From Candidatus Latescibacterota bacterium (GTDB taxonomy: Bacteria; Latescibacterota; UBA2968), in contig OZ242320.1 of NCBI GenBank assembly GCA_965208125.1, positions 672,001-736,000 on the forward strand: 64,000 nt of DNA, given 5' to 3'. A program made the position numbers and the translations under genes. The notes under the pieces were generated by a model, which was not told where the DNA came from, searched no databases, and worked only from the letters and a program-made list of their open reading frames with translations. Below are positions 44,118 through 62,819 of this stretch, one piece after another (position 1 is the first letter of the stretch; every line of letters starts with the position of its first letter).

Positions 44118-45329
44118 TCAACTCGGCCCTCTGTCAACACCCGATACAATTTCCGTAGCACCTGTTTCCGTAGTCACAAAACAGAGCAATTGCTCGGGAT
44201 TAGCCAGGTCGAAAACAACGGGCGAATGCGTAGTGGACAAAATTTGGGCACGCGCTCTATCCTCGTGCTGTGCTACAGCACTGAATGCTTTGAAAACCGC
44301 TTCTACGGCGCCAGAATGGAGACCGTTTTCCGGGACTTCGAGCAAACATATCCCATCGCCATCGGGCGAATAAGCCAGCAATGTTAGAGCCAGCAATCGC
44401 AGGGTCCCATCGGACAACATCCACGACGGTGTTTCGAGATCATTGTGGTGCTTGACCACCAGATAGCAGTGTTGATCTTCGGGACGCACAACTGTGGAAA
44501 CAGCCGATAAACCCGGCAAAACAGTGCACAAAAGCTCCAGCCAGGCCGCATGCTTGCTCGGCTCATTCTCTTTCAGTGCAGCAACCACCCAGGGCAGATT
44601 GGCGCCATTGGACAACAGAGTTTGCGGTTGCCCCGGCGGACTGGGGCGGCGAATGCATTCTCCATTGAGATCGAATTTGCGAATACTGTTTGAAAGCGTG
44701 TGTTTGAGCCATGTAGCGACGGGAAAACGCGCTTCATCCTCGGGCAAATTGCCCAGTGCCGAACGCTTCGCACCGAGCTTGAAAGAAGGATCCCACCCCG
44801 CACCGAATTCATCGTAAAATTTATCATTGCCACCGGGCACTTTATTGACAATGGTCTTGACGCCGCGCAGCCTGGGCGTCGCCAGAGTTTGCGGTATGGG
44901 ACTCTCTACGGCAAAAAGCGATTCTTGAACAGCGCGATCATCTCGCTGAATATCTGTGAGCAAAAGCACCCGCTCGGACAGAATCCCGACTTCACCATTT
45001 TCTTCGGTCACGCCAATGGCGACTTCGTATCGACATCGCGAAAAATCACGATCTGAAAACAGATTGGATTCAGGCGCAGGCACGGACAATTCAACAGCGA
45101 TTTCAAACCGATCTGCAAAACCGTGCCAGGTCAGATCGCGCAAATCATTCGCCCGGTTGTAAATAGCAGTATTGAGACCATCGCGCACAAAATCCCCGAG
45201 AAACGCAATCGCGTCGAGAAAGGTCGTCTTACCGCTGCCATTGGCACCAACCAGCATGTGAAAAGGCGCGAGATCCTGTTCGATATGACGCAAACACTGA
45301 TAATAAAGGGTTTCAAGACGCTGGATCAT
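44118..45329 (-). CDS. AAA_21 ATPase, MADS/MAD3-like, possibly degenerate
   Basis: VGANGSGKTTFLD, LSDGTLRLLAL, LLEVPENGLH, TTHSP. Confidence 0.75.
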   Translation of the reverse strand: MIQRLETLYYQCLRHIEQDLAPFHMLVGANGSGKTTFLDAIAFLGDFVRDGLNTAIYNRANDLRDLTWHGFADRFEIAVELSVPAPESNLFSDRDFSRCRYEVAIGVTEENGEVGILSERVLLLTDIQRDDRAVQESLFAVESPIPQTLATPRLRGVKTIVNKVPGGNDKFYDEFGAGWDPSFKLGAKRSALGNLPEDEARFPVATWLKHTLSNSIRKFDLNGECIRRPSPPGQPQTLLSNGANLPWVVAALKENEPSKHAAWLELLCTVLPGLSAVSTVVRPEDQHCYLVVKHHNDLETPSWMLSDGTLRLLALTLLAYSPDGDGICLLEVPENGLHSGAVEAVFKAFSAVAQHEDRARAQILSTTHSPVVFDLANPEQLLCFVTTETGATEIVSGVDRGPS

Positions 45330-46871: not shown

Positions 46872-48002
46872 TTATGCCTCCGAATCCATAAACTCCCGCA
46901 CGTATTCGCCTTTGGGCGTCAACACAGTGGTGACATCAATCACATTGGGTACTTGATCCATAATATTCTCACGGACCTGTTTAACGATATCATGCCCTTC
47001 TGATATCGTGATATCCGGCTCGACTTCCGCTGTTAATTCAACATACAGAGCACTCCCCATGGTCCGTATGCGGATATTGTGGGTAAATGTAATGGCTTCT
47101 ACCTTCTCCGCCATCTCTTCAATCAGGGCAATCACCTTTAACGAAGGCGCGAAATCAATCAACTCTTTAACCGCGGAACTCCCAACCTCCCAGGCACTGT
47201 GCAGGATCAGGCTCGCAATCACGATAGTAGTAATCTGATTGATCAAACTGAAGGTAGGAAAATAAGATGAGACAAAAATGCTCAGAAGAACGGCAAACGC
47301 ACTGGCAGAATCGGCTCGATGATGCCATGCTTTCGCAATCAGCATGGGGCTGTTCAGACCTATGCCCTTTCGCCGAGTAATGCGAAAAAGTATTTCCTTG
47401 GCAATTATTGAAATAATGATGACCACACTGACGAGGAACAAATGACTTGAGAAATCTGCATCATGGCCTACGGAATGCTCGTGACCATGAGCCTCTTTTG
47501 TAGCAGGTGTTTCCACGGGATGCTCATGACTGTGCGCCTCTATTGTATCAGGCGTTGTGGGATGCTCGTGACCGTGGGCCTCCTTTGCATCAGGTACTTC
47601 TGCTTTTTCCACAATATTTACGGAAATCCCATGCCCATGGCCATGCCCATGACCGTGATAGCCAAAAGTACTCAGGATCAGTTCTATACTCACAAACGCG
47701 AGGAGAAAAGCTGCAAAAAGCGACAGGAGAGTTTCGATCCGACGGCGGCCGTAATGGAATCTCAAATCCTCACGCTTTTTCTCAGACTGCGATCCCATCA
47801 GCACAGCGACCCAGGCGACGACATCGGATACAATATCCGATAGCGAGTGGACCCCTGCAGCAATCAATGGAAGGTATCCGGTAAAATTGCCAAGACCAAT
47901 TTTTACGACACCCAGTATGCCGTTCGTGATCCCACTTGCAGTGATAAGGGTTGTCGCTTCCTTAAGTCTGATTTTTTCACTGTGATCTACATGTGCGTGC
48001 AT
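46872..48002 (-). CDS. Cation diffusion facilitator with a His-rich loop
   Basis: HSLSD, WHHRAD, C-terminal ZT_dimer domain; inserted HGHGHGHG and three EAHxHEH repeats. Confidence 0.9.
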   Translation of the reverse strand: MHAHVDHSEKIRLKEATTLITASGITNGILGVVKIGLGNFTGYLPLIAAGVHSLSDIVSDVVAWVAVLMGSQSEKKREDLRFHYGRRRIETLLSLFAAFLLAFVSIELILSTFGYHGHGHGHGHGISVNIVEKAEVPDAKEAHGHEHPTTPDTIEAHSHEHPVETPATKEAHGHEHSVGHDADFSSHLFLVSVVIIISIIAKEILFRITRRKGIGLNSPMLIAKAWHHRADSASAFAVLLSIFVSSYFPTFSLINQITTIVIASLILHSAWEVGSSAVKELIDFAPSLKVIALIEEMAEKVEAITFTHNIRIRTMGSALYVELTAEVEPDITISEGHDIVKQVRENIMDQVPNVIDVTTVLTPKGEYVREFMDSEA

Positions 48003-48046: not shown

Positions 48047-48760
48047 CTATTCACTCTTTTTTCCCACAAAAAAAGGACCTAGCGATTCGACATAAAGCGC
48101 GGTTTGCTGGGTTTTTCTCATATCCTGCACAACGCGAGAAAGCGGATAGAGTTCTGCACCGATCAGGCCAATCACAAAATCGTTGTCATCGGCATCCAAA
48201 CCGTAACTCGCCAAGCGAATATCGTGCGCGTAATCTTCGCGTCCATAAGCGCGTCCGATAGAAGCGTGCTCCATCAAAATTTTGCGCTGTTCCCTGTGAT
48301 CGAGACGAGCAAAAGCCCCATTGCGACGCAGCGGGTACCAGATCGCCCAGGGCCATTCGGAATTGAGCACATTATCGCGTGGTCGGTCAATAAGGGCGTA
48401 TTCGAGATCTGGCTCGTAACCCGTGGCATACGTTCGCCCGAGCATGGTCAGTTCAGGGCGACGTGTACAGGCAGAGAATGGATCGCTACTGAGCAGCGCG
48501 CGAATATCTGTCACAAACAAATCCGGCGATTCCGTCAAAAAAACAATGCCAATGCCATAGGGATCTTGCACATCGAGATAGAGCGCGGCATCGAGACCGC
48601 TTTGATCGAGCACCTCAGATACAGCATCGACATCCCTGACATCAGTAAAAACCTGCAACTGCATGTAAAGCCGCCGATCACTCGTTTGCGGTTTCCCATC
48701 AACAGGCGCGCCGTGTTCGAGAATATCGAGTTTTTCTTTCGATTCAGTGGGATGATGCAC
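48047..48760 (-). CDS. Chlorite dismutase/coproheme decarboxylase (HemQ) family
   Basis: YPLRR..ILMEHASIG, YGLDADDNDFV, MRKT, GPFFVG. Confidence 0.8.
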   Translation of the reverse strand: MHHPTESKEKLDILEHGAPVDGKPQTSDRRLYMQLQVFTDVRDVDAVSEVLDQSGLDAALYLDVQDPYGIGIVFLTESPDLFVTDIRALLSSDPFSACTRRPELTMLGRTYATGYEPDLEYALIDRPRDNVLNSEWPWAIWYPLRRNGAFARLDHREQRKILMEHASIGRAYGREDYAHDIRLASYGLDADDNDFVIGLIGAELYPLSRVVQDMRKTQQTALYVESLGPFFVGKKSE

Positions 48761-48903: not shown

Positions 48904-51105
48904 TTAAAAAAACGACAACTTGTAATGCGCTTTAACACTCCGCCCTGTCTCGGGCATCACGGATCGAATGCGCGAGAGATGATTGCGGTATTCCGTATCC
49001 AAAAGGTTGTCCAAAGAGAGAATAATACTATGGCGGGTATGGTCGGTGTTAATGTCGCGCTGGGCATAGACACTGAAAACAGCATAGCCATCCGTAGGAT
49101 CTTCGAATATATCCACGCGCTCCTGTCCTGCGACAAATTCCGCAGTCCCACCAACCGTAAGATAAGGATGCTGATATGTCGCACTGCCCACAAACTTGAG
49201 CGGTGGCATCTCGGGCAAGGGCAACTGCTCATCCCGGTTCTCTCCACGCACATAACTGCCGTTCAATTCCAGATCCAAACGCGTATTCAAACGCCACCCC
49301 AGATGCATCTCCAGACCCAAAAATCGCGCGGCAACACCATCGGCAGCGTAAATCGGCAGCAGTTGGGCAAAATTGATCTCTCCGGTATTGCGCGGGGCAA
49401 TATAGGTATCAAACTCGTTCCAATATCCGCTCAAAACAAAATCGACACCCGGTTGCAAATAATGAAAAAAGACCTCGAAGCCCAGACTCGTCTCTGCTTC
49501 CAGATCAACATTACCCACCTCAAAAGTGTACGCAGCCAGATGCGGTCCATCGTTGTAAAGCTCTTCAATCGTGGGCACGCGCTGAGACCGGCTGAAATTG
49601 AAACCTCCAGTCAGCCGATCAGTAATGTTCACAAGCGGACTAATTGCTGCGGACCAGGCATGAAAGGTGCGATCTACACCGAGATCTGCAATGCTCTTTG
49701 TTCTTGGACGCGGATCAAAGTCGGCATACGTATAACGCGCAGAAGCCTGAAATTCGATGTGTCGATAGCTAAACTCGTGATAAAAACTAAGGTAAGCGTT
49801 TTGCTCTCGCGTGGGCGGCGTAAAAACAAACGCCCCCAATTTGAGATGGTGGTGGCCAAAGCCCAGGGACAGAACGGTATTTCGCGTCTGACCCTGTGTG
49901 TTCATAAGCAATTTGAGATCACCGCGGTAGTCGTGGAACAAAAACTCGGACCCAATATTACCGCTGGATTCGTACTCGAAGTGGTGATAGTAAGTCCTGG
50001 TAAAATCCACCTCTACACTACTGAACACCTGACGATCAAAATGGTATGCCGCCTTGCCATCAAATACCCGACGCTCAATATCCAGATCCACGCCATTGGG
50101 ATGCCCGCCAATAAATCCGCCGGGAATGCCGTATTGGGTCAAAAACTGATCAAAAGAAGCCCCGATATATCCCCGGTCAGTCGGATATGACAGACCGAGC
50201 GTATGCGTACGCGTTTCAATCGGTGTATTGGCGAGCCTGCCAATAGGCGTTTGCACATCCCGGGTATTGCGGTACGTAGTCTCGGCATACAGCGCAAGCG
50301 GACCCACGGGCACTGTAATCCCAGCGGCAGAGAGATACCCTCGATTGACCGTCTCGCCATAAGCACCAACACTGCCAGAAACGCGCTGCGGATGGTCTTC
50401 CGGAATCTTCTGTTTCACGACATTGATAACCCCACCAATAGCCGATGCCGTGTGAAGCAGGATGCGCGGTCCCCGAATAATTTCGAGGCGTTCTGAATTA
50501 AAAGGCTCAAGCGTAACCGCGTGATCAGCAGAAGTAGCGGATAAATCGCGGGTCTCCATACCATCTATATTGATCTGCACGCGATCGCCACTGAGACCGC
50601 GTATAACTGGTCGAGCAGGTGCAGGTCCCATGCTGCGGATGGCGACGCCGATTTCGTTTTTCATCGTCTCTGCAAGCGTGAGGCTGTACCTCTTCTGAAG
50701 TTCATCTCCAGAAAGCACGCCAGTCGCTTCGTACAATTCTTCAAAGCGCGTCTCCGCATTTTTTTCTACCACCTCAATGGTATCCGTAACAATTTCCCGG
50801 GCGACCATTTCGATGTACAGAACGGGCAATTTCTCATCCGAAACCCTTATTTCCCGACTCACCAATCCATACCCGACACGAAAAAAAGACAGGCGATGAA
50901 CGCCCTCCGGCAGATGAAAGATAAAACGGCCCCGATCATCGGTTGTCGTGCCCTCTGCGCCATCATTGACTTTGATATCAACATCGCCGATTGCACGTTG
51001 GGTTTTGCGATCAAAAACATATCCCTCGAGCAATCGCGTCTCTTGAGATGCGCCGATCGCAAAAAAAAAGAACACAACAACCAAAAAAGAAGTCGTGAAT
51101 CTCAA
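48904..51105 (-). CDS. TonB-dependent receptor (ZnuD-like), copy A
   Basis: N-terminal carboxypeptidase-regulatory-like domain, RPVIRGLSGDRV plug, ELYNDGPHLAAYTFEVGN, C-terminal F; TTG start after GGAG. Confidence 0.88.
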   Translation of the reverse strand: MRFTTSFLVVVFFFFAIGASQETRLLEGYVFDRKTQRAIGDVDIKVNDGAEGTTTDDRGRFIFHLPEGVHRLSFFRVGYGLVSREIRVSDEKLPVLYIEMVAREIVTDTIEVVEKNAETRFEELYEATGVLSGDELQKRYSLTLAETMKNEIGVAIRSMGPAPARPVIRGLSGDRVQINIDGMETRDLSATSADHAVTLEPFNSERLEIIRGPRILLHTASAIGGVINVVKQKIPEDHPQRVSGSVGAYGETVNRGYLSAAGITVPVGPLALYAETTYRNTRDVQTPIGRLANTPIETRTHTLGLSYPTDRGYIGASFDQFLTQYGIPGGFIGGHPNGVDLDIERRVFDGKAAYHFDRQVFSSVEVDFTRTYYHHFEYESSGNIGSEFLFHDYRGDLKLLMNTQGQTRNTVLSLGFGHHHLKLGAFVFTPPTREQNAYLSFYHEFSYRHIEFQASARYTYADFDPRPRTKSIADLGVDRTFHAWSAAISPLVNITDRLTGGFNFSRSQRVPTIEELYNDGPHLAAYTFEVGNVDLEAETSLGFEVFFHYLQPGVDFVLSGYWNEFDTYIAPRNTGEINFAQLLPIYAADGVAARFLGLEMHLGWRLNTRLDLELNGSYVRGENRDEQLPLPEMPPLKFVGSATYQHPYLTVGGTAEFVAGQERVDIFEDPTDGYAVFSVYAQRDINTDHTRHSIILSLDNLLDTEYRNHLSRIRSVMPETGRSVKAHYKLSFF

Positions 51106-51123
51106 AACGAATCTCCAACAGAG

Positions 51124-51163
51124 AAAAAGCCCCCACCCTGTGTCTGAAAGACCGGATGAGGGC
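51124..51163 (-). terminator. Terminator-like hairpin between lipoprotein and TBDR (A)
   Basis: gccctcatcc..gggtgggggc-TTTTT. Confidence 0.65.
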
Positions 51164-51173
51164 AAAGCAGTTA

Positions 51174-51662
51174 CTACTCTCCGACATGCACCGGAATGGG
51201 AATGGTGCGAAAATCCACATGATCGCCATGCGTGACCTGGAGTTCAATCGTAGTTTCGCCTACCTTGAGACCCCGCAGGTGAAAATCAAACTTGCCGACA
51301 TCGCCAGGATCCTGAACAACTTCCAAAACCGTGGGATCGGCAATCGCCCATGTAAATCTGAAATCCGGATCATCTGGCGGGTCAATCTCGTCGCCATGGT
51401 CATCCAGAAAACGGATGCTCCAGTGTGGCGTTTCCTCATTGAGGGGGGCGTCGAGATGATCTTTCCGACCACCGCTGGCATCAATCTGCCCTTGATAATA
51501 GCGGAAAAAACGATTGCCCGAATCTATGATAACCAGACCCTCGGGTTCGAAATGCTCTTCCTGGTGAGACATAGGATCATCACTACCACAACCAATCACA
51601 AACAAAGTCAGAACTGCCACAGCAGCAAAAATGCGTTGAAACGAGTTTCTTACAAAAAACAT
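51174..51662 (-). CDS. His-containing lipoprotein, copy A
   Basis: Lipobox VIGC, HQEEHFE, HGDH; SD AGGAG. Confidence 0.85.
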   Translation of the reverse strand: MFFVRNSFQRIFAAVAVLTLFVIGCGSDDPMSHQEEHFEPEGLVIIDSGNRFFRYYQGQIDASGGRKDHLDAPLNEETPHWSIRFLDDHGDEIDPPDDPDFRFTWAIADPTVLEVVQDPGDVGKFDFHLRGLKVGETTIELQVTHGDHVDFRTIPIPVHVGE

Positions 51663-51800
51663 GATAGTCTCCTGAATGGTAAAACCTGTACAGGACGCAC
51701 GGGTAGAGAACACATAGAGGGAGAGACTCTGCCCGCGCTCGCAAAAAAGACGTAAAAATATAAAAAATAATGCAAATTTCAGTATTAAGATATTCAGTAT

Positions 51801-52079
51801 TCAGGAAACTACTGGAGGGGATCGGCCCTGAGGCGAAAGGAAAAACTGGTGGGATAAAAATGTGAGATGCGGCAGAATAGCAAAACAACAGGCATATAAT
51901 ACACCAAAAACGACTATCGCACTGATAAGACCACTAAAGCTATAAACCCAATGGCAAACGAGGCAATGGATGTCATGTTCAACATGGTCAACCGCATGCC
52001 CAAAGGCAAAGACAAACGCGCCGATGAACAATATGGCGATCAGCCTTTTAACGAGTGGGTGTCTGAGGTAGAGATTCAT
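51801..52079 (-). CDS. DUF2946/CruR/CutF-like uORF, copy A
   Basis: TM segment, GHAVDHVEHDIHCLVCH, C-terminal QGRSPPVVS. Confidence 0.75.
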   Translation of the reverse strand: MNLYLRHPLVKRLIAILFIGAFVFAFGHAVDHVEHDIHCLVCHWVYSFSGLISAIVVFGVLYACCFAILPHLTFLSHQFFLSPQGRSPPVVS

Positions 52080-52246
52080 TTTTAATACTATATAGGTCAT
52101 CTCGAGCAAACATTTTCTGCTACAAGTGGCGTTGATCTTTTTCGCCTCTTAAGTTCAAAGATAGAGCTTGACCCCAAAAAGAGCAAGCCCCAGATCAGCA
52201 GACTGAACTGGGGCGTAGTGAAGTGTCAGCATATCTGACCGCTAAA

Positions 52247-54448
52247 TTAAAAGAAAAACATCTTGTAATGCACTTTAACACTCCGCCCTGTTTCGGGCAT
52301 CACGGATCGAATGCGCGAAAGATGATTGCGGTATTCCGTATCCAAAAGGTTATCAACAGAGAGAATAATACTATGGCGGGTATGATTGGTGTTAATATCG
52401 CGCTGGGCATACACACCGAAAACAGCATAGCCATCCGTAGGCTCTTCGAATATATCCACCCGCTCTTGTCCTGCGACAAATTCCGCAGTCCCGCCAACCG
52501 TAAGATAGGGATGCTGATATGTCGTACTGCCCACAAACTTGAGCGGTGGCATCTCGGGCAAGGGCAACTGCTCATCCCGGTTCTCTCCACGCACATAACT
52601 GCCGTTCAATTCCAGATCCAAACGCGTATTCAAACGCCACCCCAGATACATCTCCAGACCCAAAAACCGAGCGGCAACACCATCGGCAGCGTAAATCGGC
52701 AGCAGTTGGGCAAAATTGATCTCTCCGGTATTGCGCGGGGCAATATAGGTATCAAACTCGTTCCAATATCCGCTCAAAACGAAATCGACGCCCGGTTGCA
52801 AATAGTGAAAAAAAACTTCGAAGCCCAGGCTCGTCTCGGCCCCGAGATCGACATTGCCCACCTCAAAAGTGTACGCAGCCAGATGCGGTCCATCGTTGTA
52901 AAGCTCTTCAATAGTAGGCTCCCGCTGGGATCGGCTGAAATTAAAACCGCCAGTTAGCTGATCGGTAATGTTCACAAGCGGACTAATTGCCGCAGACCAG
53001 GCGTGAAAGGTGCGACCTACATCGAGAGCCGCAATACTCCTTGTCGTCGGACGCGGATCAAAATCGGCATACGTATAACGCGCAGAAGCCTGAAATTCGA
53101 TATCGCGATAAATAAATTCGTGGTAGAGACCTAATGAAGCGCATTGCTCTCGCGTGGGCGGCGTAAAAACAAAACCCCCCAATTTGAGGTTATGATGGCC
53201 AAAGCCGAGGGACAGAACGGTATTTCGCGTCTGACCCTGCGTGTTCATAAGCAATTTGAGATCACCGCGGTAGTCGTGGAACAAAAACTCGGACCCAATA
53301 CTGCCGCTGGACTCGTACTCGAAGTGGTGATAGAAGGTCCTGGTAAAATCCATTTCTACACTACTGAACACCTGGTGATCAAAATGGAAGGCCGCCCTGC
53401 CATCAAATATCCGACGATCAATATCCAGATCTACGCCATTGGGATGCCCGCCAATAAATCCACCGGGAATGCCGTATTGGGTATCGAACTGATCAAACGA
53501 GGCACCGATATACCCCCGGTCAGTCGGGTATGACAGACCGAGCGTATGTGTGCGCGTATCAATAGGTGTATTGACAAGCCTGCCAATGGGCGTTTGCACA
53601 TCCCGGGTATTGCGGTACGTAGTCTCGGCATACAGCGCAAGCGGACCCACAGGCACTGTAATCCCAGCGGCAGAGAGATACCCTCGATTGACCGTCTCGC
53701 CATAAGCACCAACACTGCCAGAAACGCGCTGCGGATGGTCTTCCGGTATCTTCTGTTTGACGACATTGATAACCCCACCAATAGCCGATGCCGTGTGAAG
53801 CAGGATGCGCGGTCCCCGAATAATTTCGAGGCGTTCTGAATTAAAAGGCTCAAGCGTAACCGCGTGATCAGCAGAAGTAGCGGATAAATCTCGAGTCTCC
53901 ATACCATCTATATTAATCTGCACGCGGTCGCCACTGAGGCCACGTATAACTGGTCGAGCAGGTGCAGGCCCCATGCTGCGGATGGCGACGCCGATTTCGT
54001 TTTTCATCGTCTCTGCAAGCGTGAGACTGTACTTCTTCTGAAGTTCATCTCCAGAAAGCACGCCAGTCGCTTCGTACAATTCTTCAAAGCGCGTCTCTGC
54101 ACTTTGGGCGACCACCTCAATGGTATCCGCAACAATTTCCCGGGCAACCATTTCGATGTACAAAATGGGCAATTTCTCATCCGAAACCCTTATTTCCCGA
54201 CTCACCAATCCATACCCGACACGAAAAAAAGACAGGCGATAAACACCCTCCGGCAGACGCAAGATAAAACGGCCCCGATCATCGGTTGTTGTACCCACCG
54301 CGTCATCATCGAGTATGATATCGACATTGTCAATTGTGCGTTGGGTCTTGTGATCAAAAACATATCCCTCGAGCAAACGCATTTCACTCGATGCGTTGAT
54401 CGCGGAAAAGCAGACCACAAAAACGAGAATGAAGGCTGTAAATCTCAA
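52247..54448 (-). CDS. TonB-dependent receptor (ZnuD-like), copy B
   Basis: Same motifs as copy A; SD AGGAGG then TTG at 54448. Confidence 0.88.
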   Translation of the reverse strand: MRFTAFILVFVVCFSAINASSEMRLLEGYVFDHKTQRTIDNVDIILDDDAVGTTTDDRGRFILRLPEGVYRLSFFRVGYGLVSREIRVSDEKLPILYIEMVAREIVADTIEVVAQSAETRFEELYEATGVLSGDELQKKYSLTLAETMKNEIGVAIRSMGPAPARPVIRGLSGDRVQINIDGMETRDLSATSADHAVTLEPFNSERLEIIRGPRILLHTASAIGGVINVVKQKIPEDHPQRVSGSVGAYGETVNRGYLSAAGITVPVGPLALYAETTYRNTRDVQTPIGRLVNTPIDTRTHTLGLSYPTDRGYIGASFDQFDTQYGIPGGFIGGHPNGVDLDIDRRIFDGRAAFHFDHQVFSSVEMDFTRTFYHHFEYESSGSIGSEFLFHDYRGDLKLLMNTQGQTRNTVLSLGFGHHNLKLGGFVFTPPTREQCASLGLYHEFIYRDIEFQASARYTYADFDPRPTTRSIAALDVGRTFHAWSAAISPLVNITDQLTGGFNFSRSQREPTIEELYNDGPHLAAYTFEVGNVDLGAETSLGFEVFFHYLQPGVDFVLSGYWNEFDTYIAPRNTGEINFAQLLPIYAADGVAARFLGLEMYLGWRLNTRLDLELNGSYVRGENRDEQLPLPEMPPLKFVGSTTYQHPYLTVGGTAEFVAGQERVDIFEEPTDGYAVFGVYAQRDINTNHTRHSIILSVDNLLDTEYRNHLSRIRSVMPETGRSVKVHYKMFFF

Positions 54449-54462
54449 AACATACCTCCTAT

Positions 54463-54502
54463 AAAAAGCCCTCACCCTGTGTCTGAAAGACCGGGTGAGG
54501 GC
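54463..54502 (-). terminator. Terminator-like hairpin between lipoprotein and TBDR (B)
   Basis: gccctcaccc..gggtgagggc-TTTTT, perfect 10-bp stem. Confidence 0.7.
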
Positions 54503-54512
54503 AAAGCAGTTA

Positions 54513-55001
54513 CTACTCTCCGACATGCACGGGAATGGGAATCGTGCGAAAATCCACATGATCGCCATGCGTGACCTGGAGTTCAATCGTAGTTTCGCCT
54601 ACCTTGAGACCGCGCAGGTGAAAATCAAACTTGCCGACATCGCCAGGATCCTGAACAACTTCCAAAACCGTGGGATCGGCAATCGCCCATGTAAATCTGA
54701 AATCCGGATCATCTGGCGGGTCAATCTCGTCGCCATGGTCATCCAGAAAACGGATGCTCCAGTGTGGCGTTTCCTCATTGAGGGGGGCGTCGAGATGATC
54801 TTTCCGACCACCGCTGGCATCAATCTGCCCTTGATAATAGCGGAAAAAACGATTGCCCGAATCTATGATAACCAGACCCTCGGGTTCGAAATGCTCTTCC
54901 TGATGAGACGTGGGATCGTCACTACCACAACCGATCACAAAGAAAGTCAGAACTGCCATAGCAGCAAAGTTGCGTTGAAAAGATTTTCTACTAAAAAACA
55001 T
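54513..55001 (-). CDS. His-containing lipoprotein, copy B
   Basis: Mature part essentially identical to copy A. Confidence 0.85.
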   Translation of the reverse strand: MFFSRKSFQRNFAAMAVLTFFVIGCGSDDPTSHQEEHFEPEGLVIIDSGNRFFRYYQGQIDASGGRKDHLDAPLNEETPHWSIRFLDDHGDEIDPPDDPDFRFTWAIADPTVLEVVQDPGDVGKFDFHLRGLKVGETTIELQVTHGDHVDFRTIPIPVHVGE

Positions 55002-55140
55002 GATATAGTCTCCTGAATGGTAAAACCTGTACAGTACGCACGGGTAGAGAACACGCAGAGGAAGCCCCTCTTATGCCCGCACAAAAAGGCACAAAAATAC
55101 AGAAAAATAATGCAAACTTTAGTATTGAGATATTCAGTAT

Positions 55141-55428
55141 TCAGAAGACTACTGGAGGGGATCGACTCTGAGGTGAAAGGGAAAACTGGTGGGATAAAAA
55201 TGTGGGATGCGGCAGAGCCAAAAAATAACAGGCGTATAATACACCAAAAACGACTATGGCACTGATAAGACCACTAAAACTATAAACCCAATGGCAAACG
55301 AAGCAATGGGTGTCATGTTCACCATGTTCACCATGGTCAACCGCATGCCCAAAGGCAAGGGCAAACGCGCCGACGAGCAATATGACGATCAGCGTTTTAA
55401 CGAGCGGGGGTCTGAGGTAGAGATTCAT
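55141..55428 (-). CDS. DUF2946/CruR/CutF-like uORF, copy B
   Basis: GHAVDHGEHGEHDTHCFVCH, C-terminal QSRSPPVVF. Confidence 0.75.
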   Translation of the reverse strand: MNLYLRPPLVKTLIVILLVGAFALAFGHAVDHGEHGEHDTHCFVCHWVYSFSGLISAIVVFGVLYACYFLALPHPTFLSHQFSLSPQSRSPPVVF

Positions 55429-55481
55429 TTTTAATACTATATGGGGCTACCACGAGCAAAAATAGTTGTCTATCAGTGCGT

Positions 55482-55958
55482 CTATTTGTCCCCTGCGGAA
55501 TGCGCTCGCAATTGTCTAATCGATTGCAATCGCAAAAGTAGCTTTTCGAGATTTGATTTTAGCTCTTTTTGGATCTCGACCATTTGCTCGGGCGTCACCT
55601 GTAGATCTTCTTTTTCGTGATGGTGATCATGGCCGTGATCATGGCCGTGATCATGGCCGTGATCATGGGCCTCTGCCGAGTCATCTCCCGGCACTTCAAC
55701 CACATTTTTTTCCCACAATTCAAAGTCTTTTTCGATAACCTGAAGACTATCGCGTATTTCCACAGCATGATGTGAAAGTGACTTTAGACTATCCAGTTGA
55801 TTCTCAAATTGCTTTTCAATTTCCATCATCGCCTTGTGAATATCCGCCGCCTGTTGCAAGTGGTGTGCATCTTCTTTATTTTCTCCCTGGCAAGAAACAA
55901 AGAACGCAAACACTATAACACTTATCACTTTGAGCCGCATTGGATTTTGTTTCTCCAT
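55482..55958 (-). CDS. His-rich coiled-coil lipoprotein
   Basis: Lipobox FVSC; HDHGHDHGHDHGHDHHH. Confidence 0.8.
   Translation of the reverse strand: MEKQNPMRLKVISVIVFAFFVSCQGENKEDAHHLQQAADIHKAMMEIEKQFENQLDSLKSLSHHAVEIRDSLQVIEKDFELWEKNVVEVPGDDSAEAHDHGHDHGHDHGHDHHHEKEDLQVTPEQMVEIQKELKSNLEKLLLRLQSIRQLRAHSAGDK
55623..55668. repeat. 12-bp tandem repeat (about 3.8 x gtgatcatggcc) encoding HDHG
   Basis: Read directly from the sequence. Confidence 0.9.
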
Positions 55959-55986
55959 ATTTTACGTCTCCTTTCACATGTTTATC

Positions 55987-56385
55987 CTATTTTTCACAAT
56001 CATCTTTGCGACATAAATGATGATTCCGAATATGGCCTGAGATCAAAAATCCCGACCCTAAAACGGTCCCCACCCGTTCCCCTATTTCCCCAAAAAGATC
56101 ATGGCCAACCATAACCATTACGACGAGGAGGGACAGCCCGAAGATACCGAAACCAATGACAAATTGATCTTTATGACGGCGACACCCCAATCCAAGAGCA
56201 AGAATGCTGGTGGGCAGAATCAGCCACATCAAAAGCGCATGAAAATGTTCATCGCCAACAAATGTAGTTGCCAACAACGGAAACGCAATAAGTGCAACAG
56301 GCAACGTCAAACAATGGATCGCACACATTGTTGAAAGAACAATGGCGATTTTGTCACCTGCGGTTTGATAGCTCAAACGCGCCAT
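55987..56385 (-). CDS. MerC-domain membrane protein
   Basis: DKIAIVLSTMCAIHCLTLP, four TM segments, GHIRN. Confidence 0.85.
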   Translation of the reverse strand: MARLSYQTAGDKIAIVLSTMCAIHCLTLPVALIAFPLLATTFVGDEHFHALLMWLILPTSILALGLGCRRHKDQFVIGFGIFGLSLLVVMVMVGHDLFGEIGERVGTVLGSGFLISGHIRNHHLCRKDDCEK

Positions 56386-56420
56386 TTATTATCTCCTTTT
56401 TATTCATAATAACTACACAC

Positions 56421-56954
56421 TTAATATGTATCACCAGGATTGTTTTTCATATCGCGCTTATCCACCACCTCGGCTTTGCTGATGCGAAAAAAGAGTTCGG
56501 AAGGATCTTTTTGCAACAATTCCAGGCGACCTGTAATAGTAACGGGATAATAAGTAAAATCAATCGGTTTGCTCGGGTGAATATCTACCAGAGACTCAGG
56601 CCCACCCCCGCCTACACAAAATGAACATCCCCCAAGTGAATACGGGGTCAAAACAAAACGCGCCTGTTTTTTTTGAGCCGATAGCGGAATCATAAACCCG
56701 ACAAGCTCGACGTATTTGCCATTCATTTTTTTTAACGTATCGGAAAAAATGGGTATAAAGGTCGGCGCATAAGGATCATAACTCACCGTCGCAAGGGTTT
56801 CCCAAAGCGACCCCTTCATCATCTGGGGCAGTGGAGACGCCTGAAGCTCTGGGCGATGGTCTGTTGACGAGGGCGGTGTCTCACTGCCAGTATCTATTCT
56901 CAAAACCACAGCAAATAACAAAATAAACATTACCGTGCGTTGTATATACATCAC
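56421..56954 (-). CDS. DUF3299 (ZrgD-like) protein
   Basis: GKYVELVGFMIPL, FVLTP..GCSFC..P. Confidence 0.8.
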   Translation of the reverse strand: MMYIQRTVMFILLFAVVLRIDTGSETPPSSTDHRPELQASPLPQMMKGSLWETLATVSYDPYAPTFIPIFSDTLKKMNGKYVELVGFMIPLSAQKKQARFVLTPYSLGGCSFCVGGGGPESLVDIHPSKPIDFTYYPVTITGRLELLQKDPSELFFRISKAEVVDKRDMKNNPGDTY

Positions 56955-58225
56955 GATACCTCCACCAGTGTTTGTGCAACATCTGTCCGATAGACCTGAA
57001 GCGCGGGTATAAGAGCCGATACACTACCCAACACAAGCGCCAGACCAATGAGCCAGAATTCATCGGATAAAATAATCCATCCCGTCAAATTTATATGCTG
57101 TGCCTCGCGCACCCATGCGCCAATCACTTCCGTGCTGGCATGCCCAAGCACAAAGCCCAATCCCGTGCCCATAAATGTAAGCAAAATCCCCTCCAAAAGC
57201 ACCTGAACAAAAAGTTTACCGCGACTTGCCCCCAAAGCACGCATCATAGCCAGATCGTATCGCCGATCTTTCATCGCATTATAAAGTGCCACAAAAATGC
57301 TCAACGCCGCTGCAAACACCAGAACCCCACCAAAAACCCGCACCACCTCCAACCCAACACCGAGCAATGCAAAAAGGCGCGTTGTCTCAAATGCGGGGGA
57401 CGCAGCCTGAAATTTGGTCTCTTTATTAACATACCTCGGAAATGACACGGCTGCAATAGGTGAACGATAGCGAATCAACAAACCCGTAACTTCGCGCTCG
57501 GCATCGGCTTCACTGTCCATCGGCAAACCCAGAACATCGCGTGCGCGGTTCTCATCGGCCTGGCTCTCCAGGTGGTGATCCAGTCCATCGCCCTCTTCTT
57601 CATGCGGTTCGTGAACCAGCCAGACCGTTTCCACAGCAGTCAGTAACAGACGGTCAATAATCGAACCCGTTGGTTGCAAAACACCCACCACGCGAAACGG
57701 TTGCGATTCGTGTTGTTCAGAAGCCGTTTCTGCGGTCAAACCATGCGAACTAATAACCTCATCGCCCAGTGCAAGACCTGTCTCTCTGGCAACCTGCGCG
57801 CCTACAACCACCTGGTATGGTCCATCCCAAAAAGTACCATCAACCAACTCCGCCCGGTAGTGTTTGGCGTATGCGGATGTCGTTCCCACAATGCGATATC
57901 CCCGATAATTATCCCCCAACGCCAGAGGTATCACCTGTGCAACTGCTCTGTTTTTTGCCAGTTCACGCGCCTCTAAAAGCGGAATATTTCCCGTTGGCAC
58001 GTCAACGTGAAATATACTGGATAAAATCAATTGCAGGGGACTGCCCTTAGCACCCACAACGACATCAATATTTTGAACATTGCGGTGCAAATTCTCTTCA
58101 AATTGTTCGCCAAAAAGCAACAAAACAACGACAATACCCGTTCCAAGCCCCAACAATATCATATTGAGCAATGTATTCAACTTGCGCCGATAAATATAGG
58201 CCAGACTAATTTTGAAGAGATTCAT
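56951..58225 (-). CDS. ABC permease, FtsX/MacB type (ZrgC-like)
   Basis: DVVVGAKGSPLQLILSSIFH, IPLALGDNYRGYRIVGT, LAMMRALGAS. Confidence 0.88.
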   Translation of the reverse strand: MNLFKISLAYIYRRKLNTLLNMILLGLGTGIVVVLLLFGEQFEENLHRNVQNIDVVVGAKGSPLQLILSSIFHVDVPTGNIPLLEARELAKNRAVAQVIPLALGDNYRGYRIVGTTSAYAKHYRAELVDGTFWDGPYQVVVGAQVARETGLALGDEVISSHGLTAETASEQHESQPFRVVGVLQPTGSIIDRLLLTAVETVWLVHEPHEEEGDGLDHHLESQADENRARDVLGLPMDSEADAEREVTGLLIRYRSPIAAVSFPRYVNKETKFQAASPAFETTRLFALLGVGLEVVRVFGGVLVFAAALSIFVALYNAMKDRRYDLAMMRALGASRGKLFVQVLLEGILLTFMGTGLGFVLGHASTEVIGAWVREAQHINLTGWIILSDEFWLIGLALVLGSVSALIPALQVYRTDVAQTLVEVS

Positions 58226-58875
58226 GCGGGCAATCCCACCTGTTCATCGAGCGCAATACAATGGTCAAAATTATCGGTAATACGATGATCATGTGAGGCC
58301 ACCACCAGAGTAGCCTGAACCTCTTGCGCCGATGACGTGAGCAAATCCAACACCTGTTTGCTGCGCGCGTCATCCAATCCAGATGTCGGTTCATCGGCCA
58401 ACAGCAATTGGGGGCGGTTAACAACAGCCCGAGCGATTGCCACGCGCTGTTGTTGACCAAAACTCAGTTCCGATGGATAAGCATGTTCGCGACCTGCGAG
58501 ACCGAGAGCCGCAAGCACCTGTTGAACACGCGCTTTGTCCTGCTGTACACCGGCCATATAATGCGCCATAAGCAAATTTTCCAGCACCGTAAAAACCGGG
58601 AACAGGTGAAATTGTTGAAAAACAATGCCAATGCGTTGCCCGCGAAATTGATCACGAGCGGTTTCTGTCAGTGCATAAATATCCTGTTTGGCAATATGCA
58701 CACTGCCCTGTGAGGGCTTTAACAAACCAGCTATAATATGCAAAAGCGTCGTCTTCCCGCTTCCCGATGGCCCGTGCAACAGCCATTTTTCATCGGGCTG
58801 AGCCTCAATATATTCTGGCAAGTCCAATACAAGACGACCGCCATAAACATGCCCAACGTGTTTAAGTGCAAACAT
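58222..58875 (-). CDS. ABC ATP-binding protein (ZrgB-like)
   Basis: GPSGSGKTT, LSFGQQQRVAIARA, LADEPT, SHD. Confidence 0.93.
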   Translation of the reverse strand: MFALKHVGHVYGGRLVLDLPEYIEAQPDEKWLLHGPSGSGKTTLLHIIAGLLKPSQGSVHIAKQDIYALTETARDQFRGQRIGIVFQQFHLFPVFTVLENLLMAHYMAGVQQDKARVQQVLAALGLAGREHAYPSELSFGQQQRVAIARAVVNRPQLLLADEPTSGLDDARSKQVLDLLTSSAQEVQATLVVASHDHRITDNFDHCIALDEQVGLPA

Positions 58876-58949
58876 GAGATAGTACTCAAAAAATGCGATG
58901 TGTGACTTCAAAATGTGCCGTCAAAATCGAGCGGATGAGGCAGTTTCGG

Positions 58950-60170
58950 TCATGCGGGCTCCTCGGTCATGATAAGCTCCGGAAACGGGTTCCGGAACCC
59001 TGCCCAGGTCTTGCTGTTAGCGGAGGCGAGGCGCTCGTCGAGCAGGCACGCGTCGAGGCGAGCGCGCATCGACGCCTCGTGCATCTGCTGGCCGATGAAG
59101 ACGAGTTGCTGCGCGCGATCGCCGAAGCGAGGATGCCAGTCCGGATGCTGGTCAGGGCGCTGACCCTCGGGGTGCCCCCAGTGTTCGCGAGGCACGGCCG
59201 CCCACCACATCCCGACGGGGTTCACATTGATGACGCCGCCGGCTTGAGACCACTCGTAGAGGATCCGATGGTCAGCGGCGACCCAGAAGAAGCCCTTCGA
59301 GCGGAGCACGCCGCGCCAGTTCTCGTCGTCGTGCAGAAGCGCCCACAGCTTCTCGGCGTCGAAGGGCTGCGACGTCCGATAGGTGAAGCTCGAAATCCCG
59401 TACTCCTCGGTCTCCGGCGTGTGCTCACCCTGAAGCTCTCGAATCCAGCCGGCGGAGTGCGCCGCCTTCTCGTAGTCGAACAGGCCCGTGTCGAGCACGC
59501 ATTCGAGCGGGACCTGTCCGTGCGTCGCCATGAGGACCTTCGCGCCGGGGTTGAACGCTTTCACGATGGCCTCGACCTCGAGAGCCTGATCGTCGCTCAC
59601 GAGATCGAGCTTGTTCAGCACGATGACGTCGGCGAACTCGATCTGGTCGATGAGCAGGTCGGTCACCGTCCGGTGATCTTCTTCGCCCAGCGACTCACCG
59701 CGGTCTTGGAGCGCCTCGGAGGCGTTGTAGTCCCGCAGGAAGCGCGCCGCGTCCACGACTGTGACCATTGTATCGAGGCGCGAAACCTGACCCAGGCTCA
59801 CACCGTTCTCGTCCTCGAAGGTGAAGGTCTGCGCGACGGGAATGGGCTCCGAGATCCCCGTGGACTCGATGAGCAGGTAGTCGAAGCGTCCCTCCTGCGC
59901 GAGCCGTGAGACCTCGGCGAGCAGGTCGTCTCGCAGCGTGCAGCAGATGCAGCCGTTCGACATCTCGATCAGCTTCTCCTCGGTCCGCGAGAGTTCCGCA
60001 CCGCCGCGCTCAACGAGCGTCGCGTCGATGTTGACCTCGCTCATATCGTTGACGATGACCGCGACGCGCATGCCCTCGCGGTTGTTGAGCACGTTGTTGA
60101 GTAGAGTGGTCTTACCTGCGCCGAGAAAGCCGGACAGGACAGTAACGGGAAGTCTCTCTGACAGGGGCAC
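58950..60170 (-). CDS. COG0523 G3E metallochaperone GTPase (ZigA/YciC-like)
   Basis: [28 protein letters not shown], CobW_C domain; GTG start after GAGG. Confidence 0.93.
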
Positions 60171-60250
60171 TTTAGTTTCCTCTCTTAAAGGGTGATGACA
60201 TACAACAGCGAATCGTTCAAACCGGTGGCGATTCAGTTTGCGGTCGTGCT

Positions 60251-61297
60251 TCACCTGTTGCCCACTCGCCAAACCGTTGCGCCGCCCTGAGCGTCGAGCG
60301 CAGCAAGCCCGCGTCCATCTGGTCGCCAGTACAAGGCGCTGACAACATCTGCCATAAGCGCAACTCCTATCGGATTGCCTTGTCCATCGCGCCTAAGTGA
60401 CCACACAACTACGCCGCCATCCCGAGCTCCCGAGGCCAAGCGCATCCCGCGGCGAGCGAAGGCGAGCGTTGTAACAGTTTGAACATGAAGTTCTAGAGCG
60501 CCGGGCCGCGTGCCTTCGGGACCACTTCCCCAGAAGCTCCAGACCGTCACCGCCTCGCCTCCGCCGGTGGCCAAAAGGGTGCCAGTGTCATCGAAGGCCA
60601 AGGCCGACGGCTTGGCAGGATATCCTGACATCATCGAGTCCTGCTCCGTGGAGCGACGCCAGAAATGCACCGAGTTGTCCTGGCTGCCGCAGGCCACGAT
60701 ATCCCCGTCCGGGCTCAGTACCATCGACACCAGGGAGCCCCTCCACTCCAGCTTCTGGCGAAGTTCTCCAGTAGATGCGTCGAAGAACGTCACCCGACCG
60801 TAACAGGCCGTCGCCAGCTCCCCTGCGCTGGACCAGGCAATCGCGCTGACGGTGCTGGGATGATCATCAGATCGCCAGACTTCTCCGCCGTCCACACCAT
60901 ACGCGCAAACCTGCCGGGAGCAGGAGGCCGCCAGCCATTGGCCGTCCGGCGACCACGCCACGTTCTCCACCCAATCGCTGCCGACATCGATAGCCTGTTT
61001 TACCTGACCTTCGGCGACACCCCAGATAAGGACTCGTCCGTCCTGGCCAGCCGTAGCGAACGCGGTTCCGCTCGGGTGGATCGCCATCGCGAGCACACCG
61101 CCATCATGAGCTCCCTGCCGGGCCCAGGCACTTGCGCCGGACTTGCCGTCGAACGCGTAGATGCCACCCGCGGCGTCACTGACCACCAGCGCCTCACCGC
61201 GGAGGGTCCAGCCCCCGGCGATGGCGTAGTCGCCGACCGCCGCAGACCAGCCCCGGCGAAGAACACCCTTTGAGCTGACGACATTCAAATCAGACAT
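60251..61297 (-). CDS. WD40-repeat beta-propeller protein
   Basis: [39 protein letters not shown]. Confidence 0.9.
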
Positions 61298-62631
61298 GCC
61301 TCGAATCCCTGCCGCATGCTCTGCTCATCGAGGTTGCGGCCGATGAAGACGAGCTGATTGCGCCGGGGCGCGTCTCCCCATGGACGCTCCGGCTGGCCGT
61401 CAAAGAGCATGTGAACCCCCTGGAAGACGAAGCGAGACGACTCACCCGCGAGGCTGATGAAGCCCTTCATTCGGAAGATGTCCACCCCGCGCTCACGAAG
61501 CAGTTCGCCAAGCCAGATGTCGAGCCTTTCGGAATCTACGTCGCCGTCCATCTCAATCGCGATCGAGCCGACCTCGTCGTCGTGCTCGTGCTGTGCGACC
61601 CAGGTACGCTCGACCTCTTGCTTGATTGTCGCTCCTTCCGCGTTCGTCAGTTGGAGATCAAACTCCTCCGCGGTGTGCTGGGCGTATAGGCCAACCCGCA
61701 CCTGCGTATCGACCTCCAAGAAGAACGACTTGCGCCCTGCGGAATCGAGTTGGAGATTCACATGCTTTCCGACAGGAATATCTTCCCCCGGGCGAATGAG
61801 CTCCGCAGGTTCGGCGTACCGCCGCACACTCCACTCCGCGCCCTCACGAAGGGCAGCGTCATCCGTGCCCTGGTCGGGCACGACGACGAGCGACATCGTC
61901 GGATCAGGTCCATCGGCGAGGCTGAGTTCGTAGCGGCCGATATCGAGCGAATAGACGCCAGTCCATTCGAACGGATACTCCGGCTCGAGGAAGGCGGGAC
62001 GACGCTCGAGCACCTGGTCCAGATCGAAGGCACCGAGGTTGAGTACCGTGTCCAGGGAGACGTTCGCTCGCTCGCTACGCACGACTTGCGCCATTCGGTT
62101 CATGTCCTGGATCCGAGCCTCGAGCCTGTCGAGCACCTCGCTATTGACGAGGTCCGTCTTGTTAAGAACAAGGACGTCAGCGAACGCGATCTGTTCCGTG
62201 CTCTCATCGCTTCGTCCGAGCTGCTGCTCGATGTGGGCTGCATCGACGAGCGTGACGATCCCGTCAAGCGCGAACTCCGCGCGAATCTCGTCGTCCATGA
62301 AAAAGGTTTGAGCGACCGGACCGGGATCGGCGAGCCCCGTGGTCTCAACCAACACGTAGTCAAACTTGTCTCGGCGCTTCATGAGGTTGCCGAGCACGCG
62401 AATCAGGTCTCCGCGCACCGTGCAGCAGATGCAGCCGTTCGACATTTCGAAGATCTCCTCGTCAGCATTTATGACGAGCTCATGATCGATGCCGACCTCC
62501 CCGTATTCGTTCTCGATCACGGCAATGCGCTTGCCGTGCTCCTCACTCAAGATCCGGTTGAGCAGAGTCGTCTTGCCAGAGCCGAGGAAGCCGGTGAGGA
62601 TGGAAACAGGTACTTTTCGCGGTGTGTTCAT
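61285..62631 (-). CDS. COG0523/CobW-family GTPase with an inserted domain
   Basis: TGFLGSGKTT, ENEYGE, GCICC, ETTG, NKTD; about 130-aa insert before CobW_C. Confidence 0.93.
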   Translation of the reverse strand: MNTPRKVPVSILTGFLGSGKTTLLNRILSEEHGKRIAVIENEYGEVGIDHELVINADEEIFEMSNGCICCTVRGDLIRVLGNLMKRRDKFDYVLVETTGLADPGPVAQTFFMDDEIRAEFALDGIVTLVDAAHIEQQLGRSDESTEQIAFADVLVLNKTDLVNSEVLDRLEARIQDMNRMAQVVRSERANVSLDTVLNLGAFDLDQVLERRPAFLEPEYPFEWTGVYSLDIGRYELSLADGPDPTMSLVVVPDQGTDDAALREGAEWSVRRYAEPAELIRPGEDIPVGKHVNLQLDSAGRKSFFLEVDTQVRVGLYAQHTAEEFDLQLTNAEGATIKQEVERTWVAQHEHDDEVGSIAIEMDGDVDSERLDIWLGELLRERGVDIFRMKGFISLAGESSRFVFQGVHMLFDGQPERPWGDAPRRNQLVFIGRNLDEQSMRQGFEACLI

Positions 62632-62819
62632 CTAGTTCTCCTGGAGCAGAGGTACGAGTATTGGAATTTGGACGTCGAATCCCCACGCCGTGCAGACCCG
62701 GACCAGATCCTTGGCGTCAACGGCGTCCATGGATTTGTGTAGCTTGTGAAGCTGTGGCACATCGGGCCGAAGCAGGCCGATCACGGTTTCGACGGGCGCG
62801 CAGCCTTCTGCTAGATGCA

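Follow-up and report, generated by a model that had tools for sequence, protein, structure and literature searches.

Leader peptides that sense a metal as nascent chains have so far been shown for copper only, in CruR and CutF. In the published concept, an exported leader senses the metal and carries an RxPP arrest core at its C terminus; it is often encoded before a TonB-dependent receptor (PMC9426467; PMC9973294; PMC12992588; 10.1101/2025.02.05.636593; these sources and PMC11481552 are cited throughout for the accessible portions of their text). The present analysis concerns two small open reading frames (ORFs) that resemble such leaders. They lie on the minus strand of a 64,000-nt stretch of contig OZ242320.1 from a Candidatus Latescibacterota bacterium, referred to here as the window, with copy 1 at 51801-52079 and copy 2 at 55141-55428.

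CruR of Bordetella pertussis (Bp2923) is a small exported first gene, followed by a long spacer and then by a gene for a TonB-dependent transporter (PMC9426467). The DUF2946/CruR pattern consists of an N-terminal export signal, a CXXC and, after an interval of 45 residues that is constant within 1-2, a RAPP motif located three residues from the end (PMC9426467). When CruR arrests, the two Pro codons of the motif occupy the P and A sites (PMC12992588). Metal sensing by the CruR nascent chain switches off the uptake system (PMC9426467, PMC12992588), and the effect is exerted through Rho-dependent termination. In CutF of Rhodobacter capsulatus, the stalled ribosome keeps a Shine-Dalgarno (SD) sequence open by unmasking a local stem-loop, a logic shared with SecM (PMC9973294). 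The metal motif and the stalling motif of CutF are both required in cis (PMC9973294; 10.1101/2025.02.05.636593). CutF is made with a cleavable Sec signal; its metal motif is CxxxC and its stalling motif is of the PPP type. Metal raises stalling in this system and turns on a detoxifying oxidase. The RAPP-like arrest peptides (SecM RAGP, ApdA/ApdP RAPP, ApcA RAPG) have a common C-terminal core; they are small proteins, secreted or located in the membrane, whose genes precede the gene that they regulate. Upstream ORFs with RAPP or RGPP are reported to precede TonB receptors and metal genes, as do the small ORFs described here. RSPP is an arrest-permissive variant of ApdA/ApdP, is under-represented and was found in E. 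coli stalling screens (PMC12992588).

The best explanation of the locus, held as narrowly probable, is that both small ORFs are translated and act in cis as leaders of the CruR/CutF type (DUF2946-like), in which stalling would unmask the SD sequence of the next gene and the metal would likely be zinc. Compared with CruR, the proteins of the window carry RSPP rather than RAPP and have 92-95 rather than 145 amino acids. A second hydrophobic helix fills the CxxC-to-RSPP interval and a His cluster is added. The host belongs to the Latescibacterota and not to the Proteobacteria, the context is probably one of zinc starvation rather than copper, and a predicted SD-masking helix stands where CruR acts through Rho-dependent termination. 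In contrast to the local stem-loop of CutF, the masking strand lies within the last codons of the leader itself and closes a loop of ~120 nt.

Form, spread and conservation of the small proteins

Copy 1 encodes 92 residues ending in GRSPPVVS and copy 2 encodes 95 residues ending in SRSPPVVF, each followed by a stop codon. The two are paralogues and are 80% identical. The initial annotation described a transmembrane helix, a His cluster with HCxxCH, a second hydrophobic stretch and RSPP three residues from the stop in both copies, and this layout was recovered by translation, hydropathy and an AlphaFold2 (AF2) model. A basic N terminus (Lys/Arg) is followed by a hydrophobic stretch at about residues 8-31, with hydropathy windows of at least 1.6 beginning at residues 8-17. 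The His/Cys cluster reads H28-x3-H32-x2-H35-x2-H38-C39-x2-C42-H43, with an additional GEH in copy 2. The second hydrophobic stretch covers about residues 44-75 of the hydropathy profile. Both proteins end in G/S-R-S-P-P-V-V-S/F, where the RSPP codons (CGA TCC CCT CCA in copy 1) occupy 51813-51824 in copy 1 and 55153-55164 in copy 2, both on the minus strand. The AF2 model contains helices at 8-31 and 40-80 and an unstructured tail at 81-92, with a mean predicted local distance difference test score (pLDDT) of 77.1 and a predicted template modelling score (pTM) of 0.41. Hydropathy and AF2 agree on a predicted two-helix membrane hairpin with the His/Cys residues at its tip.

The word-seeded search returned 22 close homologues at 68-91% identity. 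A profile search of 1.84 billion representatives returned 21 proteins at E<=0.001, with identity down to 23%. The 17 loci that come from species genomes are all from Latescibacterota metagenome-assembled genomes. Within this phylum, family matches were present in 69 of 168 genomes and 18 of 49 genera, in 26 of the 52 genomes with a completeness of 90% or more and a contamination of 5% or less, and in all 20 other genomes of the genus to which the window belongs. There are up to three copies per genome. The genome of the window itself contains the two copies, one weak match that includes a stop, and no more. The relatives P0028-P0045 lie outside the Latescibacterota, and one remote relative comes from a Zixibacteria record. 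No public name for the small proteins was found in the sources searched.

The motif was counted in 45 homologues collected by similarity alone, so that its presence was not a requirement for entry. Counts were made by regular expression, with P0029 and P0034 read by eye from the alignment. R[S/A]PP is present in 43 of the 45 (34 RSPP and nine RAPP), one protein has SSPP and one has none. The motif persists in homologues down to 23% identity. The spacing from CxxC to Arg is 43 in both copies and 42-46 in 44/45 homologues, and PP is followed by three residues in both copies and by 2-3 residues in 39/45. In alignment A2, where identity falls to 23%, C39 and C42 are the only invariant columns, and both are invariant in alignment A1 as well; H28, R86, P88 and P89 are at least 90% conserved in A2. 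The features that persist at low identity are the N-terminal helix, one His, the CxxC and G-R-(S/A)-P-P. The second hydrophobic stretch is conserved as a property and not as a sequence. RGPP forms occur in two further Latescibacterota loci; these were picked by a regular expression that requires the motif and are not counted as a test of it. The conserved G-R-S-P-P, ~43 residues after the metal site, is by its sequence a putative RAPP-like arrest core.

RxPP is counter-selected in this organism. RSPP occurs five times in the genome against a median of 14 for permutations, RGPP once against 21, and RAPP seven times against 17. The depletion of RxPP from proteomes is common to this genome and the published survey of RAPP-like peptides (PMC12992588). 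The published surveys used RAPP and RGPP, whereas the family described here is predominantly RSPP. Of only three intergenic stop-to-stop segments in the genome that end in R[ASG]PP, two are the small ORFs. The third (G000:C1:4007712-4007999, minus strand, outside the window) ends in …EQRAPPI and is not hydrophobic.

The small ORFs are regarded as real genes because of their homologues, the matches across the phylum and the synonymous variation of their codons. Among same-genus orthologues, the numbers of variable columns at codon positions 1, 2 and 3 are 51, 42 and 70, with position 3 the highest, and 66 ungapped codon columns vary in amino acid. The RSPP codons themselves vary synonymously (Arg CGA/CGT, Ser TCC/TCT, Pro CCT/CCC, Pro CCA/CCG/CCC). 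A chance open frame was rejected on the basis of the homologues, the 69 of 168 genomes and the synonymous motif codons. A hint of expression comes from Logan contigs of relatives, 85-97% alike, which by their run labels belong to sponge and coral metatranscriptomes. In two studies, contigs run from the lipoprotein gene through the spacer and the small ORF; one of them extends to the upstream His-rich gene, and short contigs that are 97% alike fall inside copy 1. Such contigs cannot show the start, the strand or a single transcript, and stretches without cover carry no meaning.

The initial annotation also noted that the small ORFs lack an SD sequence, and none (GGAG, GAGG or AGGA at -17 to -4) precedes the ATG in any of the 18 same-genus copies; a weak AAGG stands in this interval in four of the 18. 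The hexamer TAGTAT is located 5 nt before the ATG in both window copies, as had been stated. The suggestion of a leaderless start found no support, given that a sigma-70 consensus scan returned no minus-strand promoter 5' of either small ORF and that TAGTAT with the 5-nt spacing occurs in only 7/18 same-genus copies. The end of the upstream gene lies only 53 nt from copy 2. A 10-mer, TAATACTRAA (at most one mismatch), occurs 10 times in the window, a count matched by 1 of 100 shuffles. Six of the 10 flank the two small ORFs, with an inverted copy just 5' of each ATG (52083-52092 and 55432-55441, plus strand) and two direct copies right after each stop (51778-51802 and 55118-55142, minus strand). 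This element could be an operator or a 5'/3' pairing element.

The relation to DUF2946 (Pfam PF11162, gathering cut-off 23.7 bits) was proposed in the initial annotation and holds in part. The layout agrees, in that an N-terminal export or membrane segment is predicted by hydropathy and the AF2 helix 8-31, a CXXC is present, the tail after PP is short, the distance from CXXC to the motif is 43 against the published 45 within 1-2 (PMC9426467), and the ORF, as first gene, is separated by a long spacer from the lipoprotein and TonB receptor genes. The window copies carry RSPP and not RAPP, and formal Pfam membership was not borne out. No PF11162 match above the cut-off was obtained in any of the 168 Latescibacterota genomes and no match at all in the genome of the window. 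A same-genus RAPP orthologue (G086, locus L007) reaches 22.5 bits exactly at the position of the small ORF. Eight of 23 members of A2 score 15.4-20.8 bits, aligning from profile positions 51-54 through 117, that is, from just before the CxxC to the last position of the profile. An embedding search (Atlas) returned unnamed small-protein clusters; the one at rank 23 (score 0.91) carries PF11162 on 54% of its members and serves as a lead only. A homologue search from P0036 yielded P0036 alone, and one from A2 yielded 30 proteins, none with a Pfam domain. The family is termed only DUF2946-like because the Pfam model stays below its cut-off, and is probably a sister or fringe branch rather than a formal member.

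The predicted helix at the ribosome-binding site

A 14-bp helix is predicted between the end of each small ORF and the SD region of the lipoprotein gene that follows. Its 5' strand consists of the last three codons of the ORF, the stop codon and two further bases, and its partner lies ~125 nt away. In copy 1, the 5' strand GTAGTTTCCTGAAT (51799-51812, minus strand) comprises the codons of Val90, Val91 and Ser92, the TGA and 2 nt, and the 3' strand ATTCAGGAGACTAT (51664-51677, minus strand) includes the SD sequence GGAG at 51669-51672, located 6 nt before the ATG of the lipoprotein gene (51662-51660). In copy 2, folding and duplex energy place the 5' strand GTAGTCTTCTGAAT at 55139-55152 and the 3' strand at 55005-55018, again on the minus strand, with GGAG at 55010-55013 and the ATG at 55001-54999. 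The spacer of copy 1 (51663-51800, minus strand) has 138 nt, is 40% U and is enclosed by the helix, with internal hairpins; that of copy 2 (55002-55140, minus strand) has 139 nt. The SD stem that the initial annotation had anticipated is matched by this predicted SD-sequestering helix, and its 5' strand would lie inside a ribosome stalled at RSPP.

Folding was applied to 17 same-genus sequences, each taken from the Arg codon to shortly after the start of the lipoprotein gene. The outermost helix joins the end of the small ORF to the SD sequence in all 17 minimum free energy folds. The duplex has -18.5 to -20.8 kcal/mol in 14 of the 17, values that no more than 4 of 1000 random windows of the respective locus match. 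For both window copies, the minimum free energy and centroid structures retain the helix, with z = -3.31 and -2.04. In a 16-sequence alignment, pairing is present in 95.5% of 224 cells, compared with 34-54% when the partner strand is slid. Two helix pairs show double changes, for example in L015, where a TGA to TAA stop is matched by TTCAGG to TTTAGG. When pairing was forbidden at nucleotides 1-25, the cost of opening the ribosome-binding site fell in 15/16 sequences, from a median of 11.45 to 6.0 kcal/mol; opening energy was judged a better measure of accessibility than unpaired probability.

The enclosed spacer varies from 93 to 288 nt across same-genus loci and is partly unalignable. Its variation in length and sequence points to selection on the helix ends. 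The SD-masking helix is the best conserved RNA feature of the locus. As this 14-bp helix pairs with the SD region, the ribosome-binding site is predicted, by folding and comparison, to be masked in the free mRNA. The helix would also account for the three-residue tail through RNA geometry. The protein sequence of the tail varies freely (VVS, VVF, AVS and others in distant relatives) and the base pairs are kept. One of the criteria for arrest peptides, an mRNA structure that links the stall to downstream expression, has a candidate in this predicted helix.

Further structures were recorded in the spacers. In the two window copies, a scan for intrinsic terminators found none in the spacer, and an attenuator of this kind was rejected for these copies on that ground. 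At L016:6280-6567, a 288-nt spacer contains a run of GCCTTTTGTG-like tandem repeats and the closing helix still has -18.5 kcal/mol. At L002:6001-6372 and L004:6001-6372, in two related genomes, the same small ORF, with the ending PPVV-stop, heads an operon of MacB-like ATP-binding cassette (ABC), FtsX and DUF3299 genes in place of the lipoprotein-receptor pair. Pairing between ORF end and SD sequence is only -3 kcal/mol at these two loci, and a hairpin followed by a U-run stands after the stop in the 96-nt spacer, with an attenuator-like look. The family thus differs between loci in its output module.

Neighbouring genes and the proposed metal

Both small ORFs belong to a tandem duplication of ~3.3 kb, ~90% identical, in which each repeat comprises the small ORF, the spacer, a lipoprotein gene and a TonB-dependent receptor gene. 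The order of small ORF, lipoprotein and receptor is kept in 15 of 17 loci. The lipoprotein genes, which are the proposed regulated genes, are located at 51174-51662 and 54513-55001 on the minus strand. Each encodes 162 amino acids; the first has a lipobox VIGC and a predicted Ig-like beta-sandwich. No Pfam or NCBIfam match was found for the lipoprotein, and its AF2 model (mean pLDDT 74.3) matches generic Ig-like domains only, with a best E of 1.3e-4. The receptor genes lie at 48904-51165 and 52247-54586, also on the minus strand, the first with CarboxypepD_reg, Plug and barrel domains. ZnuD is the best NCBIfam model for both receptors, at 223 and 226 bits respectively and far below its cut-off of 950; the TonB-copper model gives only 61-65 bits.

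A run of genes on the same strand extends upstream at 55482-63454. From the small ORFs outward, it contains a His-rich lipoprotein, a MerC-family protein, DUF3299, an FtsX/MacB permease and an ABC ATPase, the latter two forming a split MacB-like transporter. These are followed by a ZigA-type COG0523 gene, a WD40 protein, a second COG0523 gene, an ORF of 119 amino acids and a Fur-family gene. With 624 bits, the match to the ZigA equivalog exceeds the cut-off of 600. The Fur-family gene is the only one in the genome, and its protein stays below every equivalog cut-off. The Zur/COG0523 context that had been read from the sequence alone is thus represented by a Fur-family gene and COG0523 genes in the cluster. 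In Pseudomonas and Vibrio, Zur is reported to control split MacB clusters that include periplasmic metal chaperones (PMC11481552). The Pseudomonas cluster moves cobalt-pyochelin, and the accessible text of the same source does not mention DUF3299 (PMC11481552).

Zinc is the best guess for the sensed metal because of the ZigA-type COG0523 gene, the second COG0523 gene, the sole Fur-family gene and the receptors for which ZnuD is the best model. Copper, cobalt or nickel is possible.

Other genes of the neighbourhood were noted in passing. The His-rich lipoprotein gene (55482-55958, minus strand) has an HDHG repeat at ~55623-55628, where RNA-library contigs of relatives differ by 24-nt indels. 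Just downstream of the receptor units are a cation diffusion facilitator (CDF) transporter gene with two His-rich loops (HGHGHGHGH; 46872-48002, minus strand) and a chlorite-dismutase/HemQ-like gene (48047-48760, minus strand). An ORF of 128 amino acids (63602-63988, minus strand) adjoins the Fur-family gene; by eye it resembles a PIN/VapC-type protein, and it has no NCBIfam match at E<=1e-4. A 403-residue protein (44118-45329, minus strand) scores 383 bits with the model of the antiphage methylation-associated defence ATPase MAD3 (NF047739), below the cut-off of 420.

Proposed control and its alternatives

In the proposed control, the ribosome would pause when Pro88 occupies the P site and Pro89 the A site, a register assigned by analogy with CruR, and the P-site codon would begin at 51818. 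The footprint of a stalled ribosome extends to about +15. At copy 1 it would cover 51812-51803 and thereby 10 of the masking strand's 14 bases, among them UUCC, the partner of GGAG. The lipoprotein and TonB-receptor genes would be translated as long as the stall lasts. Less certain is the manner in which the metal would act. At stalling, the His/Cys loop would be ~44-58 residues from the peptidyl-transferase centre and would therefore be located at the tunnel exit or the translocon. Metal occupancy of the loop may alter the pull on the nascent chain and hence the lifetime of the stall. Absence of metal would give a long stall and expression, and bound metal would give release and loss of expression. 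Stalling at RSPP and induction by scarcity are both inferred from the characterised systems. The sign of CruR, where metal ends the stall and the genes are turned off, is expected because the controlled genes are for uptake, and for the same reason a sign opposite to that of CutF would apply. By analogy, the sign of CruR is expected to be delivered through an RNA switch like that of CutF.

A bolder form of the proposal is possible but tentative. The family would then be the first nascent-chain sensor to respond to zinc, with a naturally occurring RSPP arrest peptide, and would be widespread in sponge- and coral-associated Latescibacterota. At the stall, the loop would be held stretched between the inserted first helix and the tunnel exit. 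Zinc in or at the translocon would compact the loop and pull the chain, which would free the ribosome, allow the helix to re-form and turn uptake off, as a translational layer on top of Zur.

A number of results count against stall-dependent unmasking, or against the leader type and metal assigned to it. The helix is weak at L001 (-13.8 kcal/mol), L012 (-13.1) and L014 (-6.9), where 60, 27 and 535 of 1000 random windows, respectively, match it. The number of double changes is reached by 16 of 500 shuffles, for which reason the covariation is only suggestive; it is thin, as coding and SD function place further constraints on the two strands. With the 5' strand blocked, an opening cost of 6 kcal/mol remains, and the median probability that the SD sequence is unpaired rises only from 0.001 to 0.044, since weak local A-U and G-U hairpins replace the helix. 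Beyond the genus, only four of 23 scored loci have a helix better than 95% of random windows, six further loci have no SD-start candidate, and at L002 and L004 the small peptide precedes an ABC operon with no helix between ORF end and SD sequence. The initial annotation had called for a DUF2946 hidden Markov model search, and with PF11162 the window proteins gave no match at a threshold as loose as E<=10. DNA may be the source of the RNA-library contigs. No natural peptide with RSPP arrest has been shown in the accessible literature, where RSPP stalling comes from screens and mutants. CxxC is a classical motif for Cu(I), and copper is the metal sensed by the only relatives that have been characterised. 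Plain translational coupling would suffice without a regulated stall, because any terminating ribosome opens the helix. Support is good for the architecture of the family; its mechanism is unproven.

Such coupling is part of a fairly unlikely alternative, in which the small protein is a stable two-helix inner-membrane metal-binding protein that acts in trans, for example as an accessory or chaperone for uptake, the helix provides only constitutive coupling, and RSPP is a tail of structural or slow-translating character with no regulated arrest. The plausible AF2 hairpin with His/Cys at the tip (mean pLDDT 77) and the geometry by which any ribosome at the stop codon would melt the helix are consistent with such a protein, as are the different, helix-free operon at L002/L004 and the 4/23 scored loci outside the genus. 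It is harder to reconcile with the poor conservation beyond the motifs (66 variable columns within the genus, 23% identity in A2), which is unlike a folded function. The invariant features are instead those of arrest leaders, namely the fixed CxxC-to-RxPP spacing and the tail of 2-3 residues; RxPP is counter-selected in the proteome, and the tail changes (S/F, V/A) preserve base pairs. A highly improbable alternative is that the ORFs are untranslated and the conserved element is a pure RNA or an operator. The missing SD sequence before the ATG and the AATACT repeats on either side of the ORF would fit a non-coding element. The protein motif is kept through synonymous changes, with codon position 3 the most variable (51/42/70), homologues at 23-35% identity retain the length, hydrophobic pattern and motifs, and the frame is open in 69 genomes, all of which argue for translation.

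The remaining alternatives keep the stalled ribosome and change what it does or what it senses. A rut site, the usual mark of Rho-dependent termination, is expected to be C-rich and G-poor. The spacer of the window copies is U-rich (40%) with C about equal to G, contains no intrinsic terminator and is closed by a helix that is better conserved than any other RNA feature of the locus; for these reasons it is quite unlikely that the stall mainly blocks Rho-dependent termination or mRNA decay in the spacer, in the manner of CruR, rather than unmasking the SD sequence. The model for that reading is CruR itself, a TonB-receptor leader with a 162-bp spacer (PMC9426467); spacers are also long here (93-288 nt), and L002/L004 have the hairpin and U-run after the stop. 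It is unlikely, but an option of some weight, that the stalling architecture is as proposed and the metal is copper, cobalt or nickel, with receptors that import the metal or a metallophore. CruR senses copper through its CxxC (PMC9426467), Ni/Co genes adjoin those of CutF-like proteins that carry His motifs (PMC9973294), and Zur-controlled split-MacB clusters of Pseudomonas are those that move cobalt-pyochelin (PMC11481552). The distance of the receptors from the ZnuD cut-off (223-226 bits against 950) and of the Fur-family protein from any equivalog cut-off points in the same direction. Zinc is favoured over these metals by the ZigA equivalog above cut-off and the second COG0523 gene in the same strand run, by the higher receptor scores with ZnuD than with the TonB-copper model (61-65 bits), and by the neighbours scanned, among which no multicopper oxidase, PCuAC, YcnI, CopC or PepSY gene was found.

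Several elements of the preferred explanation, the stalling leader with SD unmasking, were not found in the accessible portions of the print literature: a predominantly RSPP family, a two-helix hairpin leader of ~92 amino acids, a Latescibacterota host for such leaders, a zinc-starvation context, and an SD-masking strand made of the leader's own last codons. No literature joining zinc with arrest peptides was found either, and the word 'zinc' occurs 0 times in the accessible text of PMC12992588, PMC9426467 and PMC9973294. Supplementary material of the main papers may already include this branch or zinc contexts, and the novelty would then be smaller.

The family would extend nascent-chain metal control to a zinc-starvation cluster with a ZigA-type COG0523 gene, to another superphylum and to a different arrest core, RSPP. 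It would also offer a clean test case, as a 92-residue peptide with a metal site at a fixed distance from the stall site. The 14-bp helix would set the SD-masking strand under the stalled ribosome, so that stall, helix and metal site could be separated by a few point mutations. Surveys of DUF2946 that are based on Pfam miss this whole branch, as 69 of the 168 Latescibacterota genomes carry the family and none has a match above the cut-off.

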